DNA of 36,214 nucleotides. Source: a virus (taxonomy: Duplodnaviria > Heunggongvirae > Uroviricota > Caudoviricetes). Positions 17,068 through 31,459 of this stretch are shown piece after piece. The notes under the pieces were generated by a model that made no database searches, was not told where the DNA came from, and saw only the letters and a list, made by a program, of their open reading frames with translations. The stretch lies in the IMG/VR virus record IMGVR_UViG_2541047804_000005. One strand, written 5' to 3'. Position numbers and translations under genes: made by a program. Each line of letters opens with the position of its first letter. Position 1 is the first letter of the stretch.

Positions 17068-17338
17068 GATGTTACCGTAGTATGTGAGTATCCATCGAAT
17101 AGATACCAAGCAAAAAAGCTCCCGAAGGAGCCTTCATTTTCACTTTTTTAAATCCAACGACAGACGGCTGGCATTTAAGTATTGTGAAATATTATCAAAT
17201 GTAATCATCATTGATTTACAAAAGATACATTTTGCCCCGAAAGGATTCATGTCAGAAACATCAAAAGATGATGTTCTATACTGGGAACCATGACAACACG
17301 GGCATCTAAAGTGAATATGGTTTGTAATATTGTCTACC

Positions 17339-17551
17339 TCAAAGCGCCACTACATGAACAGCGGCAGGACCTTTAGGTCCGTTCTCAATACCAAATTCAA
17401 CTTCCTGATTCTCAGTTAATGTTTTGAAATCGTTGCTCTGAATTGCTGAGAAATGGACAAACACATCTTTGCTGCCATCTTTCGGCGTGATGAAACCAAA
17501 ACCTTTTTCAGGGTTAAACCATTTCACTAAACCAGTCATTTTGTTAGACAT
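17339..17551 (-). CDS. cspI: Cold shock protein, CspA family (CspI-like)
   Basis: 70-aa ORF with the cold-shock domain signature KWFN.EKGFGFI and VFVHFSAI (RNP1/RNP2 motifs); a long AT-rich upstream leader region follows on the minus strand. Confidence 0.8.
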
Positions 17552-17914
17552 AATTATTACCTTTTGAAGAAATTAGCCCTTGGGCAGAATGGTCCGAAAA
17601 AAAATATCAGAGAGAAAAACCAACAAGGAAATCTCAAGAGGTACAAATAATAAAATTATAACAATGACTGCTTCAGATAAATTTGTAACAAACCAGAACA
17701 CCATTAACGCATGATTAACCACCCATAGCAAGGATTACTTTTGTAAAGAAAAACACAGCAATGAAAGAATAGCTTTATTTATTAATAATAACGTGTCATT
17801 CTGATTAAGACCTTTTATCTTACCCTTAAGATTTCAGGAATTTTGGCTCATGGAAGAGTCCTTTTTATTTAAATTTTACATTCCGCGATGTAAATGTTCC
17901 GATTTAATATTACC

Positions 17915-19939: not shown

Positions 19940-20223
19940 TTTGAGATTGTGGTGCTTTTTGTGGGAGTCATCCACTTACGCACTTTGTTTTGCCATGCCA
20001 GCAGTTAGCTTCTGCTGTAAAACTATTCATGCAGCAAACCTGCACTTCACCACAATGGTTAGCATACTTTTCCTGATTAAGATTTTGCCAAATATGCTAG
20101 CCATTGTTTCATGTATTGGACCTCCTTACTTTTTATTAAAGAGATCCAATATTCACTACTCTGTCCGTATCTCTACTCAGGCATCAGCCTTCTTCGTTAT
20201 CGTATACAGACGAGCGATGAATT

Positions 20224-20439
20224 TTAATCAGTAATGATGACATTTGCTGCTGCAGGACCTTTAGCACCACTCTCTATAGAGAAGGTAACCTTTTGACCTT
20301 CAAATAAGGTTCGATAATTATCATTCTGAATCGCAGAAAAATGCACAAACACATCTTTACTACCATCAACAGGAGAAATAAAGCCGAAACCTTTATCAGC
20401 GTTAAACCATTTTACTAAACCAGTCATTTTATTTGACAT
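20224..20439 (-). CDS. cspB: Cold shock protein, CspA family (CspB-like)
   Basis: 71-aa [26 protein letters not shown]...VFVHFSAI with both RNP motifs; divergent from the cspF-like gene as in Qin. Confidence 0.75.
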
Positions 20440-20739
20440 TCTACATTCCTTAACTTGAGCCTTTCGGCATAAATGGTTTGCATAACAGAAACGACTTCGT
20501 ACTTAATTGGAGAGACTCAAAGAAGGAATAAGTGAATAACACCTGAAATGAGAACTGCTTTAGTAAACTACTTCGTATATCGTCTGTTCTTCAAACCGAC
20601 GCAATCATTAACGCATAGTTGAACATATGAAGCAATGTTTATTTTAGACATCCAGCCATCTTCAACCCCATCAAAAAACTATAGCTTTCTTCAGGAACGT
20701 GTGTATAGTGCGCCAAGTTATCAGTATTAAGGAATTTTT

Positions 20740-24780: not shown

Positions 24781-24936
24781 TTACTCCTCAGGTTCGTAAG
24801 CTGTGAAGACAGCGACCTCCGTCTGGCCGGTTCGGATTCGTACCTCGCAGAGGTCTTTCCTCGTTACCAGTGCCGTCACTATGACGGTTAAACAGATGAC
24901 GATCAGGGCGATTAACATCGCCTTTTGCTGCTTCAT
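24781..24936 (-). CDS. hokD: Hok-family type I toxin (HokD/RelF-like)
   Basis: 51-aa ORF MKQQKAMLIALIVICLTVIVTALVTRKDLCEVRIRTGQTEVAVFTAYEPEE: single transmembrane helix plus the conserved Hok C-terminal Cys region. Confidence 0.85.
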   Translation of the reverse strand: MKQQKAMLIALIVICLTVIVTALVTRKDLCEVRIRTGQTEVAVFTAYEPEE

Positions 24937-24993
24937 AGCCTGCTTCTCCTTGCCTTTCGGCTCGTAAGAGGCTAACCTACATGTGTCTAGCAT
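24781..24993 (-). CDS. Mok-like reading frame (in-frame N-terminal extension of hok)
   Basis: ATG at 24991-24993 opens a 70-aa frame (MLDTCRLASYEPKGKEKQA-MKQQK...) that runs into hok, resembling MokC-type arrangement. Confidence 0.5.
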   Translation of the reverse strand: MLDTCRLASYEPKGKEKQAMKQQKAMLIALIVICLTVIVTALVTRKDLCEVRIRTGQTEVAVFTAYEPEE

Positions 24994-25050
24994 GAAATTG
25001 GCCTCAGATTAATGTTAAGCGTCTTGCAGGACGCGTAATGTTAACTGGGG
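24985..25050 (+). ncRNA. Predicted Sok-like antisense RNA
   Basis: Plus-strand TTGCCT-N17-TAACCT (24950-24978) would start an antisense transcript across the mok start codon and ribosome binding site; a short hairpin GCGTC-TTGCAG-GACGC lies at 25010-25025. No clear U-tract terminator; ends are approximate. Confidence 0.3.
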
Positions 25051-25111
25051 CTTTTCTCTATCTGCCTTTGGTGTTCATGCCCGAGGCAGATAGCCTCAAG
25101 CACCCGCAGCC

Positions 25112-25610: not shown

Positions 25611-27398
25611 ATGGACGATATTAATATCAGCCTCGACGAACTTAACACTATTGATTTATCCCCCTTAATCCAGAGTAAGCTGCCAGTTACCTGCTTTGAT
25701 ATCACAAAGTATCTTTCTAGCCTAGGTGATGGAAGAGCGGAGATAAGACTGCTAACCCATATTTGCGGTTTTCACTTTCGTCCCGAAAATCCACAGGTAC
25801 CATTTGGTCCGTGCTTTCAAAGCAGCCAAGGTAGATCTGCAATTCCGGATGACATTAACGGGTTGTCGCTGGAGGTACTTTCTCAATTTTGCCCGACGAT
25901 AGAGCTACCCGAACTTCAAGCTCGTATTGCTGATACACTTTGGGTTCGTAAAATTGGTGGAATCCGTTTTCCTTTGCTGGCAGTCCGTGCTTATTATGCG
26001 TCCAGTATAGCTATTATGACATCGCAAGGGACGTGGGTTAGTGCTTTAGAACGCCTAGAGCGTGCGCTTAGGCTGTGTTGTTTTTTTCGAAAGAATACTG
26101 ATTTCAGGGATGAATTTGATCAGCTTTCGGCACATCTACTAGCAGAGTATGAACGTACCAGAGAACAAGGCGATTCACCTTATCCGCTGCGACTCCTGCA
26201 ACTCGATATCGACTGTAAAGTGAGTGAGCCATCTTTTATTGCCCAGGAACTCCTGTTTCTGACAAAAAACTATCTGGCTCAAAAATTATTTTCATTTGCC
26301 GTCGATGCCTGTAAAACCGCAATCACGATTGCGAATAGGTGCTGTGACAGAGATACACAGTTTGAATTCTGGCGGCTTCTTGCCGATACACATCTGGAAG
26401 AGTCAAAATTCCAAGATGGCGGTATGATTTCGGCAGCCTGCATGCAGAATGCTATTGAAGCACTGGCTAATATTCCAGGAACCCGAATAGAACGTCTTGC
26501 GCTGTATGAAGAAATGCGTGATTACCAAATCGAATCCCGTCACCAGATGTCTATCCTTCAGTCTCCCCCTCAAGATATTAGTGAGATTGTCCATCAAGCC
26601 AAGAGTCGGGTAGTCGGAAGAGATATGTTTGATATGGTTTTCAGACTTGCGATGCTGGTCTGTCGGCCAACCAGCATTGAGAGACTTAAGGCTCAAGCAA
26701 TAGAACAAAAGGCCAACAGCATAGCTTGGATGTTTGGATCAACACATATTGATCATGAGGGAATGACACTTGCTCGCATACCCGCAGGATTGGGGATTGA
26801 TGATGCAAATGGGGCAGTTATTTGGCCCATAATGATGACGAGAATGCGTATCGACCATGAGTTGGCAGTAGCTGGGCAAATTATTCCTGCTACAGATGAG
26901 ATCACAATGAAATATCCAATCTCGGAGGCGTTTTTTCGCGATATGTTCATCAATCATCCCTTCATCCCGTTTGGGCATGAAGAGTTTTTCATCAAGGGTA
27001 TGGTTTGCGGTTTCAATGGAGATTTTATGACGGCATGCCACGTGTTGATTCCCCAGATCGAAAATAGTCTGAGATATGTGGCTAAAATTAAAGGTGAGGA
27101 ACCATCGCAGCTTCACGGGGACGGTTCGCAAGAGCGAAATGGACTCAAGGGATTACTAGATAATCCACTGATTATTGAAGCTTTCGGCGTAGACATAATT
27201 GGCAATCTTCAGGCCTTACTGGTAGATAAAATCTATGGTGATTTACGAAATCAACTAGCTCACGGATATGTGCCTGCCGGTTACTACAATCAACCTCCCT
27301 GCATTTTTGCATGGTGGCTTGTATTGCACATTCTAATGAACCCTACGGCGAGATACTGGCAAGCCACTTATGGCCAAGAGAGTGAGGCTCAGACTTAA
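25611..27398 (+). CDS. Orphan 595-aa protein with C-terminal HEPN-like Rx4HxY motif; candidate abortive-infection or defence RNase
   Basis: Long uninterrupted ORF with AGGTGA ribosome binding site, opposite in orientation to both neighbours, lower GC than the flanking phage genes. C-terminal LRNQLAHGY (R546...H551.Y553) fits the HEPN Rx4-6H / HepT Rx4HxY catalytic signature. No N-terminal domain recognised. Confidence 0.6.
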   Translation: MDDINISLDELNTIDLSPLIQSKLPVTCFDITKYLSSLGDGRAEIRLLTHICGFHFRPENPQVPFGPCFQSSQGRSAIPDDINGLSLEVLSQFCPTIELPELQARIADTLWVRKIGGIRFPLLAVRAYYASSIAIMTSQGTWVSALERLERALRLCCFFRKNTDFRDEFDQLSAHLLAEYERTREQGDSPYPLRLLQLDIDCKVSEPSFIAQELLFLTKNYLAQKLFSFAVDACKTAITIANRCCDRDTQFEFWRLLADTHLEESKFQDGGMISAACMQNAIEALANIPGTRIERLALYEEMRDYQIESRHQMSILQSPPQDISEIVHQAKSRVVGRDMFDMVFRLAMLVCRPTSIERLKAQAIEQKANSIAWMFGSTHIDHEGMTLARIPAGLGIDDANGAVIWPIMMTRMRIDHELAVAGQIIPATDEITMKYPISEAFFRDMFINHPFIPFGHEEFFIKGMVCGFNGDFMTACHVLIPQIENSLRYVAKIKGEEPSQLHGDGSQERNGLKGLLDNPLIIEAFGVDIIGNLQALLVDKIYGDLRNQLAHGYVPAGYYNQPPCIFAWWLVLHILMNPTARYWQATYGQESEAQT

Positions 27399-27616
27399 AG
27401 TGAATAAGTTTACGAAGTTGGCACTTCCGGATGCATGTCCATATGAGTTGAGGCGATTTGGTTAATAAGGTTGAGTGCTGCTGAAATTATTCGATGTCCG
27501 CTTTTGGCACAAAGCGGACAACCACGCCAGATCTACCCTGTGCCATGAAAAATGAGAATGTCAATTCACTCCTGAACTAATGCTTTTTAATCTAGTAACG
27601 TCTAAAATACCTAACA

Positions 27617-28018
27617 TTATCCCTGATAAAATGCCAGTATGCGCTGCATAACTTCACTCATCCGGCACTCGCGACAGATTATGTTTAGGCGACTGTCGTA
27701 GCGACGTATTTCTCCATCAGGTAACGACCAGATAAGGTCCGGATCAACCACAGCTGTTTTCTTCACCTTTGCCCTCGAGAGTTTTTTGCGGGCGTTTTGC
27801 CAGTCCTTACGCGCCTGTTCAGACGGGAATAACCCGTAGCCGGAGTTGTATACATCGCCACTGGCTACCAGCTCTCTGGCAAGAACGCTCATCAGATATC
27901 TAGTCGCACCTGTTTTAGCTTCCAGTTGCCGTAACGTCTCACGACCGCTCTGGCGCACGAGTTCCACCACCTGCCCTTTAATTTTTTCCCGCTCTTCTTG
28001 TGTAAAAACTTTTGCCAC
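27617..28018 (-). CDS. Hypothetical protein downstream of the replication initiator (133 aa)
   Basis: ORF in the position occupied by the helicase loader (P) in lambda but far smaller and without recognisable ATPase motifs; C-terminal CRECR. Confidence 0.4.
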   Translation of the reverse strand: MAKVFTQEEREKIKGQVVELVRQSGRETLRQLEAKTGATRYLMSVLARELVASGDVYNSGYGLFPSEQARKDWQNARKKLSRAKVKKTAVVDPDLIWSLPDGEIRRYDSRLNIICRECRMSEVMQRILAFYQG

Positions 28019-28058
28019 AAGTCCCCCTTAAAATTACCTCATGACCTGAAATCAAAAC

Positions 28059-29024
28059 TTATCCTCTGAAACCAGGCGGAATTTCTGTATCCGGTTCAGA
28101 AATATGATTAACACAACGCTGTACAGGTGAACGCCCCAGGCGGATGACCAGTTCGTCCCATTTTTCGCGGAGCTTTGACGGGCTCATGATGTTTTTTACC
28201 CAGAATGGATCCCGCTGTACCCGACCAAACATTTCACAAATTTGTCTGTGGCTTCTGCCATCCAGCATCCGCATTGTGCGCACATCATTGGCCCAGACAG
28301 TCCAGTTAGGCTCTTTTGGTCGCATGATCTCGCCATCATCACTGGCGGCCTGTTCGTAGAGACCCACGATCCGCCCCCATATCCACTGCGCACACGCCAG
28401 ATCCTCCTGGCTACCCCACTGGCGTTTTTTCGCACTAAACACAACTGCGCCAGGGTGCCGGATTAAAAAATCCTGTTCAGCCGTCTGCGGGTCCGGTTGC
28501 GAAGCTTCCGGACGAAAAGTGTTTTTATTCTCTGTAGTAATCTCTGTTGTATTCTCTGTAGGATCATCGGGCCATTTTGACCCGATGACATTGGGTCGTT
28601 TTGAACCAATGGAGCGTTTCATTTTGACCTCTTCCATCGTGTCATTTTGACCTGATGGAGCGGCGCATTTTGAACCGATGGATTCGCTCAATTTGCCATC
28701 ATCTAAAAGCTCGCTTCCATAGTTAATCGTGTAGAAATTGGTCATATCGCGCTTTGATTTATTGAGCTTTTCACAACGCAAAAGCCCCAGCGTTTTCAGA
28801 CTTGCAAACGCGCGCTTTAACGTTGACTCTGACCAGAATGGGAACTGTTCCAGCCATTGTTCCGTTGTGTTGTAAATCCAGCGAACACCATCACATTCCA
28901 TGCCGGAATTGGTATCTCTCAACCAGTAATGCAACTGCTGCAACACAATGGCTTCATTTAAGCCAATCTTCATCGCAAGCTGTGTGTTTATAACCAGTGG
29001 GCGTTCAGCAAAAAGAAGGCTCAT
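28059..29024 (-). CDS. Replication initiator protein (lambda O-like) with embedded origin iterons
   Basis: ATG at 29022-29024 (MSLLFAERPL...); N-terminal winged-helix-like region, central repetitive segment (SIGSK, RSIGSKRPNVIGSK) encoded by DNA iterons, distinct C-terminal domain. The track start at 29078 is a TTG. Confidence 0.7.
   Translation of the reverse strand: MSLLFAERPLVINTQLAMKIGLNEAIVLQQLHYWLRDTNSGMECDGVRWIYNTTEQWLEQFPFWSESTLKRAFASLKTLGLLRCEKLNKSKRDMTNFYTINYGSELLDDGKLSESIGSKCAAPSGQNDTMEEVKMKRSIGSKRPNVIGSKWPDDPTENTTEITTENKNTFRPEASQPDPQTAEQDFLIRHPGAVVFSAKKRQWGSQEDLACAQWIWGRIVGLYEQAASDDGEIMRPKEPNWTVWANDVRTMRMLDGRSHRQICEMFGRVQRDPFWVKNIMSPSKLREKWDELVIRLGRSPVQRCVNHISEPDTEIPPGFRG
28527..28704. 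repeat. Origin of replication iteron array (ori) inside the initiator gene
   Basis: Five to six direct repeats of consensus CATTTTGAMCYGATGG at 28573, 28597, 28620, 28643, 28666 (degenerate copy at 28689), spaced 23-24 bp, adjoined by ATTCTCTGTAG repeats at 28527 and 28551 and an AT-richer stretch. Confidence 0.65.
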
Positions 29025-29526
29025 AATTCCATCCAGCTTTTTGTTGGTATTGCTGTCGATACGCAAGTTTGAAAGCAATTGCTTTTTCTATAAGTTCGTC
29101 AGTTTCACGATCCACTACGGCAGGATCAGCAAAAAGCAGTCCGGACTCCACCACATCGCCATATTCTTTGTTTAACCCGGCGATCATGTACGTGATGCTT
29201 TTTCCGTCACTAATTTCACGATACAACCTGAAATCATTAATCCGGATAGCCTCCATAATTGCAGGCACTAGCGCCGTGAACTTTTCACGCTTATCCCTGG
29301 TGTCGATAGCCTTCCAGCGTTCGAATATCTTCACTCGATTAACGCCAAGCGCTCGCTGATCAACCGCGCCACCTTCATCTGTGACACGCTGAACATCGAT
29401 GTTCGGGCGCTCTTTCAAAGCCCAGAATGCTTCAGTGATTAATATCGTCGCCTGCTCCTGTGTCATTCCTGGTCGACATATCCAGGCATCCAGAGCCTCA
29501 CGAGCCTGTTCAGGAGTGATTTTCAT
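29005..29526 (-). CDS. Hypothetical early protein between the Cro-like gene and the replication initiator (173 aa)
   Basis: ORF in the position of cII/YdaT-type genes; no motif recognised with confidence. Confidence 0.4.
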   Translation of the reverse strand: MKITPEQAREALDAWICRPGMTQEQATILITEAFWALKERPNIDVQRVTDEGGAVDQRALGVNRVKIFERWKAIDTRDKREKFTALVPAIMEAIRINDFRLYREISDGKSITYMIAGLNKEYGDVVESGLLFADPAVVDRETDELIEKAIAFKLAYRQQYQQKAGWNYEPSFC

Positions 29527-29737
29527 TGTTCAACCGCCCCGCCCGCTTCGTCTTACGATATTCGTCATAAACCTTGGGATCATACAGAAGCTCGCCGCCA
29601 GATGCCTCCTGTAGACGCATCGCGCGACCTTCAGGAACCAGCTCTTGCCATTGAGAAACAGCAGATGGGTCAACGCCAGCAGCTTTCGCTACTTTGGCTT
29701 TCGTACCGTAAAAATTAATTACGTCTGATTTAAACAT
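29510..29737 (-). CDS. dicC: Cro-like regulator, DicC-like
   Basis: 75 aa from ATG 29735-29737 (MFKSDVINFYGTKAKVAKAAGVDPSAVSQW...YDPKVYDEYRK...NENHS) with GGAGGT ribosome binding site; divergent from the repressor gene. Confidence 0.7.
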   Translation of the reverse strand: MFKSDVINFYGTKAKVAKAAGVDPSAVSQWQELVPEGRAMRLQEASGGELLYDPKVYDEYRKTKRAGRLNNENHS

Positions 29738-29750
29738 CGCACCTCCAGTA

Positions 29751-29764
29751 TTGAGTTTTCTCAA
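29751..29764. promoter_or_regulatory. Candidate operator in the dicC-dicA intergenic region
   Basis: TTGAG-TTTT-CTCAA inverted half-sites, with further CTCAAG half-site-like repeats at 29774-29797, in the 77-bp divergent promoter region. Confidence 0.45.
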
Positions 29765-29814
29765 TGCTAATCACTCAAGGAATCTCAAGTCAAGGGTTAT
29801 TAAGATATCTAAAT

Positions 29815-31406: not shown

Positions 31407-31459
31407 TTTCTGGTGACGTTTGGCGGTATCAGTTTTACTCCGTGACTGCTCTGCCGCCG
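31407..31459 (+). ncRNA. dicF: DicF small RNA
   Basis: TTTCTGGTGACGTTTGGCGGTATCAGTTTTACTCCGTGACTGCTCTGCCGCC followed by GTTTTT matches DicF as remembered, including the GGCGG...CCGCC terminator stem; located just upstream of dicB. Confidence 0.75.

Follow-up and report, generated by a model that had tools for sequence, protein, structure and literature searches.

The segment at positions 28514-28703 of the window, the whole 36,214-nucleotide stretch of phage DNA analyzed here, is very probably the vegetative replication origin of this prophage, and as read from its sequence it would lie inside the gene for its own initiator. This gene (28059-29024, minus strand) encodes a protein of 321 amino acids plus a stop codon and carries two adjoining repeat arrays, one of six iteron units and one of three tandem 12-bp units. 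Elements of this kind are classical, as in lambda and the RepA_N plasmids. The particular build found here has no description in the literature searched: an unnamed winged-helix family is joined to a lambda O C-domain and a DnaT tail, a conserved 12-mer module is present, and P is dispensed with. Nor did that literature contain a published account of this family's origin, its activity or initiator binding.

The region is the early-right operon of a lambdoid (Qin/CP-933O-like) E. coli prophage, and structural genes are also present in the window. Lambda and this prophage share the gene context cI, cro, cII, initiator. A divergent HTH repressor gene lies near a pR-like promoter (TTGACT-18-TAGCAT, 29764-29793, minus strand) located by consensus scan, and the promoter and terminator scan returned nothing else beyond chance. 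We infer that this promoter drives the Cro-like gene (29510-29737, minus strand; PF14549 P22_Cro, E 4e-16), the CII-like/YdaT-family gene (29005-29526, minus strand; phrog_163 CII-like, E 2e-40) and the initiator gene, with transcription passing through the origin. Downstream, a gene of the DUF977/LygF/'Ren-like' type (27617-28018, minus strand; PF06163, E 6e-27; phrog_142, E 1.9e-44) sits where lambda has P. The open reading frame enclosing the initiator gene extends over 28059-29078 on the minus strand, and the start annotated in phage mEp460_ev081 corresponds to window position 29024. The module recurs, at 98% identity, in two isolated phages, mEp460_ev081 and HannyBb.

The initiator matches the PHROGs family phrog_391, 'replication initiation O-like' (E 3.5e-92), and Pfam contains no family for it or for any of 40 aligned relatives. 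An AlphaFold2 model built on this 40-sequence alignment divides the protein into an N-domain (residues 1-110), a linker (111-179), a C-domain (180-297) and a tail (302-321). The N-domain is confidently predicted (pLDDT 76-93), and its winged-helix part (residues 1-104, encoded at 28713-29024, minus strand) is presumed to bind the iterons. The C-domain (28134-28487, minus strand) is helical, also confidently predicted, and was recognized as similar to the C-terminal domain of lambda O by BLASTP and hhalign. Residues 111-179 are predicted to be disordered, with pLDDT below 50, and most of the residues encoded by the iterons and the 12-mers fall within them. On this model, we propose that the origin-encoded peptide would merely be a disordered tether joining the N- and C-domains.

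The repeat arrays were defined by repeat search and TRF. The iteron array occupies 28565-28703 and consists of six units at 28565-28587, 28589-28611, 28612-28634, 28635-28657, 28658-28680 and 28681-28703, the first figure of each being its plus-strand start. The units run head-to-tail with spacings of 24, 23, 23, 23 and 23 bp. Four are strong and two degenerate, those starting at 28612 (degenerate right arm) and 28681, in which the core is kept and the arms have decayed. On the gene strand the consensus is CATCrGGTCAAAATGaCCyGATG, with inverted arms meeting at an A-tract; a strong unit reads CATCGGGTCAAAATGACCCGATG, that is, CATCGGGTCA-AAA-TGGCCCGATG, and forms a near-palindrome about the A-tract. 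The dyad symmetry is exemplified by the inverted repeat I2, which is 91% complementary. The 16-mer named in an earlier, sequence-only reading of this DNA gave four matches with up to three mismatches within 28573-28681, and four 23-mers fit it with 0-2 mismatches. Only two scattered matches to the 16-mer (up to three mismatches) occur in the rest of the 36 kb; counting both strands, chance predicts 1.6 for the window as a whole. Thus, the repeat searches, the match statistics and the near-palindromes confirm what that reading had observed, namely direct repeats at 23-24 bp spacing in this part of the initiator coding sequence.

The same reading had noted a second kind of repeat in the initiator coding sequence. 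Next to the iterons lie three tandem 12-bp units starting at 28526, 28538 and 28550 (28526-28561; TATTCTCTGTAG / TAATCTCTGTTG / TATTCTCTGTAG on the plus strand and CTACAGAGAATA / CAACAGAGATTA / CTACAGAGAATA on the gene strand), a candidate DNA-unwinding element and helicase entry site. Allowing two mismatches, the 12-mer has seven matches in comparison with 1.58 expected, a number reached in none of 100 shuffles, and three of the seven form the tandem array. Both arrays are thus in excess of chance. In the direction of the gene the iterons come first and the 12-mer array after them. The surrounding block (28514-28561) is only modestly A+T-rich, at 30% GC, and its strands are strongly asymmetric (AT skew -0.64). 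Of all 40-bp stretches across 27600-29800, the 12-mer array forms the least stable duplex: its nearest-neighbour dG37 is -44.6 kcal/mol, the mean being -54.8 (sd 3.6), and it ranks among the least stable 1.5% of the 36-kb window.

Comparison with lambda bears out computationally the earlier proposal of an ori-within-O arrangement: the repeats lie in the initiator gene, the C-domains are homologous, the elements follow in the same order, and selection acts at the DNA level, as detailed below. In the lambda record, the four iterons inside O are dyad-symmetric and begin at 39034, 39054, 39078 and 39101; their spacings are 20, 24 and 23 bp, and on the coding strand a purine-rich A+T block follows to the right. 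The likeness extends to dyad-symmetric iterons at 20-24-bp spacing within the initiator gene and a purine-rich A+T block downstream. The period, which had been described as different from that of lambda, is not (23-24 bp here, 20/24/23 in lambda). The claim of a different iteron sequence holds for the arms (GGGTCA/TGACCC here, CCCTCA/CGAGGG in lambda), whereas the center, TCAAAAYGA, is common to both. Further differences are the six units here instead of four, an A+T block that is an array of conserved 12-mers, and, after the initiator, no P gene; the protein ends instead in a DnaT-like tail.

At the protein level, homology with lambda O is clear for the C-domain (34% identity over 148 aa, E 3e-27 by BLASTP; hhalign probability 99.2%), and in both searches the aligned region is limited to initiator residues ~147-296. 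No homology was detectable by Pfam or hhalign between the N-domain and that of lambda O (Pfam Phage_rep_O). An N-domain lacking detectable similarity to lambda O, together with divergent iteron arms, supports the suggestion that the initiator would have a distinct specificity. Origin repeats also lie inside the gene for the origin-binding protein in SPP1 (gene 38/oriL) and TP901-1 (rep), so that the replisome-organizer genes of phages from Gram-positive hosts share this feature with the gene described here. The TP901-1 record labels rep 'experimental'; homology of its product to the N-domain was rejected (hhalign probability 0.1%). The 'Eru' replication types of Stx phages were likewise rejected as a match, since they involve different proteins.

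The sequence-only reading was right in its core about the initiator, but it overlooked the RepA_N likeness, the missing P gene and the DnaT-like tail. The DNA-binding half and the iteron design appear closer to RepA_N plasmid replicons than to lambda. Searches of Pfam, NCBIfam and PDB sequences with the N-domain yielded only sub-threshold winged-helix noise, and Pfam gave no sequence-level match of the initiator to PF06970 (RepA_N). By fold, the N-domain comes closest to iteron-binding RepA_N initiators (Foldseek E 0.02), which denotes structural likeness only. The iterons of RepA_N replicons are direct repeats of semi-palindromic form, with inverted repeats that meet at a poly-A tract (PMC7145576), and in pSK41, which encodes a Rep of 319 aa, the origin resides in the linker-coding center of rep (PMC5703833). 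By the definition drawn from these two papers, the linker that such iterons encode is dispensable. The array analyzed here shows the same design, with semi-palindromic iterons converging on an A-tract, placed centrally in the gene and encoding the predicted disordered linker 111-179. It differs from RepA_N systems (RepA of pSK41 and pTZ2162; Vibrio PLE RepA) in that the C-terminal domain is lambda-O-like and not RepA_N/DnaD-like, that the carrier is a temperate phage of Enterobacteria and not a Firmicute plasmid, and that a conserved 12-mer array adjoins the iterons.

A DNA-level binding array need not be an origin. Iteron arrays in plasmids can serve control functions, and the evidence assembled here is entirely computational; the array could therefore act in autoregulation, in titration and incompatibility, or as a superinfection-exclusion decoy, with the true origin located elsewhere. 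We consider this improbable. Scans with the 16-mer and the 12-mer, mismatches allowed, found no second cluster of either motif elsewhere in the 36-kb window; the iterons adjoin the least stable duplex of the region; and the anatomy fits two experimentally defined origin types, those of lambda and pSK41. Moreover, a phmmer search of six-frame open reading frames with queries comprising lambda P, one homologue of P and two proteins like DnaC detected no P-like or DnaC-like loader in the window.

The interpretation as an origin gains further weight from the way the repeats have been conserved. The gene was codon-aligned with 12 relatives from Escherichia, Klebsiella, Citrobacter, Enterobacter, Raoultella, Izhakiella, Trabulsiella and Edwardsiella, and codon identity was scored at residues identical to those of the window and having degenerate codons, with Fisher's p. 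Codon identity amounted to 76-100% in the repeat segment (iterons and 12-mers pooled) and 70-98% in the iteron segment alone, in comparison with 29-55% in the flanking N- and C-domains (divergent relatives only). For example, the origin segment and the domains scored 39/41 and 34/86 in Klebsiella phage Kp4882-3 (p 4e-10), 40/42 and 69/139 in mEp460_4F5 (p 2e-8), 28/34 and 48/120 in Trabulsiella (p 1e-5), and 26/33 and 51/112 in Edwardsiella (p 7e-4). Amino-acid identity shows no such excess, since in divergent relatives the iteron-coded segment reaches 52-68%, not above the 65-78% of the N-domain. The iterons are conserved in the Klebsiella, Citrobacter, Enterobacter, Edwardsiella and Trabulsiella relatives, and the 12-mers are nearly invariant. 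The repeats are thus not synonymous-site noise devoid of conservation, a possibility that the sequence-only reading had raised against itself; they are conserved, with synonymous sites above the level of the domains, and are under purifying selection at the DNA level, not selected as peptide.

More distant relatives extend this picture. The N-domain was found in 155 phage records, including phages of Vibrio, Staphylococcus, Bacillus, Bacteroides, Klebsiella, Pseudomonas and Listeria, and in at least 590 viral contigs. A scan of viral contigs with the family alignment recovered only close relatives (93-100% identity), and the diversity came from a second scan seeded with a Bacillus homologue. 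In diverse relatives, clade-specific semi-palindrome arms lie 3' of the N-domain (CTACCCAAAATGGGTAG; TGTTCAAAATGAACA; TGCTCAAAATGAGCA; GTGCCAATATGGCAC; AGGTCAATATGACCT), and these clade-specific iterons are followed by two to five copies of ACAGAGAnTACn. Among the relatives from Bacillus, Niallia and metagenomic phages, the motif ACAGAGAnTAC reappears 3' of the iterons. Accordingly, the arms vary with the N-domain and the 12-mer motif stays constant. Downstream of the same N-domain and origin, at least two kinds of C-domain occur; one is lambda-O-like, and the other, judged by eye, looks like the 'conserved phage C-terminal' type (Phg_2220_C-like). The C-terminal half alone is common to other initiators, which are named 'helix-turn-helix domain-containing protein' or, in Sakai Sp12, 'phage replication protein'.

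This modularity invites another explanation, in which the high nucleotide identity of the segment reflects the recent recombinational spread of a mosaic N/C junction and not selection. The segment does lie at a module boundary, one N-domain with its repeats is attached to two unrelated C-domains, and the C-terminal parts are shared with other initiators. However, the conservation is motif-shaped: substitutions in the relatives map to the spacers between cores, and the cores are spared. It is also seen in each of the lineages sampled, even where protein identity falls to 48%, and in Firmicute and metagenomic relatives the 12-mer motif has outlasted a change of the iteron arms. Recombinational spread is therefore a very unlikely source of the pattern.

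The peptide encoded by the repeats bears on the remaining alternative. The earlier description of a repetitive SIGSK linker applies to the three units that share a frame and encode IGSK; the others encode SGQND and EVKM. Since the period is 23 bp, the core GGTCAAAATG is read in all three frames, and a frame is shared only between units 69 bp or 24 bp apart. Unrelated peptides arising from one core mean that a peptide repeat is unable to explain the array, and the IGSK linker arises as a side effect of the DNA repeat. The 12-mers are codon multiples, and for this reason codon choice, not frame, was used as the test: in the clustered T-E-x-T repeats that they encode (23 family clusters, <85% identity), Glu is specified by GAG in 44 cases and by GAA in 2, in comparison with 224 GAG and 353 GAA elsewhere in the same genes (p 3e-15). 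That the repeats are a peptide linker alone, kept at the protein level or by neutral slippage and having no DNA function, is scarcely credible: the segment does encode repeated IGSK and TENT/TEIT peptides within a disordered linker, partly in units of whole codons, but the three frames, the synonymous sites conserved far beyond those of the folded domains where amino acids are less conserved, and the nearly constant GAG all speak against it.

Copy number in both arrays changes by whole units. Among close relatives the 12-mer is present in 3, 4 or 5 copies, with variants at loci L008, L129, L134 and L161. The cluster P0018-P0023 lacks 31 aa, that is, 93 nt and exactly four 23-bp units; in this lineage the four units were lost by recombination between in-frame iterons. 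Genomes retaining variants with only two iteron units indicate either that few units suffice or that such prophages are defective.

The origin reading suggests the following course of initiation. Rightward transcription from the pR-like promoter would yield the 321-aa initiator, whose N-terminal winged-helix domains would bind as dimers to the six semi-palindromic 23-bp iterons. The iteron arms would confer specificity, and the central A-tract would aid bending, giving rise to a wrapped nucleoprotein complex that strains the adjoining 12-mer array. Under this stress the array, which combines A+T richness and strand asymmetry with the lowest duplex stability of the region, would open. Finally, the lambda-O-like C-domain and the DnaT-like tail would bring in the host DnaB-DnaC, the phage having no P or DnaC of its own. 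In this scheme the 12-mer array is probably the site of unwinding and helicase entry, as its position, stability and conservation indicate, although with less assurance than attaches to the origin as a whole.

The conservation of the 12-mers across phyla exceeds the needs of a purely thermodynamic role. The ACAGAGAnTACn array is kept at the codon level, with relatives in Enterobacteria, Bacillus, Niallia and many uncultured phages, and analogues for a sequence-specific opening element exist in the DnaA-trios and in the binding of Rep to single-stranded DUE repeats (PMC4081077). A more speculative and rather doubtful proposal is that the array, in its 2-5 units, acts as a sequence-specific opening and helicase-entry element read by the conserved part of the initiator, with the DnaT-like tail serving as the motif that leads into host DnaB-DnaC loading and replaces P.

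The tail itself comprises the last 20 codons (QRCVNHISEPDTEIPPGFRG; 28062-28121, minus strand) and aligns end-to-end with residues 160-179 of E. coli DnaT (primosomal protein I), with 15 of 20 positions identical and a terminus of ...SEPDTEIPPGFRG. The extreme C-terminal motif of DnaT, SEPDxxIPPGFRG, is present in it. The N- and C-terminal folds of DnaT are absent, since the NCBIfam model PRK02854 aligns only at positions 160-179 and, with 16 bits, stays below its cut-off of 201, and PDB matches to DnaT are confined to the last 20-21 residues of the initiator. Relatives in which the C-domain is of another type, and others in which the N-domain differs, end in the same tail (L011, L016-L019). 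Tail types and downstream loaders were compared at 171 loci, counted as distinct C-terminal 60-residue sequences (tail-loader loci L009, 1473-2204, and L014, 3912-4640). Tails ending in ...GFR[GST] accompany no loader in 22 sequences, a DnaC-like gene in 14 and P in none, and the two sequences ending in ...WENTL have a homologue of lambda P downstream (PF06992, E 1e-57). As far as these sequences go, tail type appears to track the downstream loader, in a small sample with two P cases only. The DnaT-like tail may link the initiator to the host DnaB-DnaC, a connection that we regard as plausible yet somewhat short of probable. The preprimosome structure paper calls the mechanism by which DnaT recruits DnaB/DnaC unknown and assigns no function to the DnaT tail (PMC13377028), and the link is accordingly put forward as a hypothesis.

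The prevalence of the gene gives these observations a broader scope. The initiator gene is carried over at least 80% of its length by 1846 of 5426 complete E. coli genomes, about a third, and among the matches listed NCBI's pipeline names it 'hypothetical protein'. Its recognition as an initiator with an internal origin would provide such prophages with a defined replicon. Origin and initiator specificity decides whether co-resident lambdoid prophages cross-activate or interfere with one another, affects the speed of phage amplification after induction and supplies new compatible replicon parts. The protein and its origin form a chimera in which a DNA-binding half that is RepA_N-like in its predicted structure and RepA_N-style iterons are combined with the C-domain of lambda O and a DnaT tail, a build that speaks for lambdoid 'O' genes swapping modules with the RepA_N/DnaD world. 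The pairing of tail and loader constitutes a testable hypothesis for how a phage does without P, and possibly for the contact of DnaT with DnaB-DnaC; if the tail does substitute for P, it would also show which part of DnaT makes the hand-over to DnaB/DnaC.

Several other features were observed in the family and in the prophage. Three loci from Deferribacterales and Proteobacteria MAGs (L024-L026) encode proteins of ~790 aa with two tandem N-domains followed by long arrays of short repeats (RPQPDQS x6 in L026); these may be plasmid- or phage-type initiators with a duplicated DNA-binding module. At two further loci, both in viral contigs (L143, from ~1960 onward, and L156), the initiator gene is broken directly after the first 12-mer by an insert that starts TGTGAACCGCCCCGGG and contains the ORF MTKNTRFSPEVRQRAV. 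This insert may be an element of the IS3 family (IS629-like), which would sit in the putative unwinding region.

Elsewhere in the window, a 595-aa DUF7380 + DUF4209 protein (25611-27398, plus strand) corresponds to the PADLOC candidate defence system PDC-S39 (E 8e-103). Its gene, read from the opposite strand, separates the replication module from hok/sok. In mEp460_ev081 this slot contains a different ORF of 449 aa, which suggests a moron or defence hotspot. Rfam identified a sok antitoxin RNA (24931-25105, minus strand), a DicF RNA (31408-31459, plus strand) and two cspA-type thermoregulator leaders (17312-17697 and 20208-20600, both minus strand) in the prophage.
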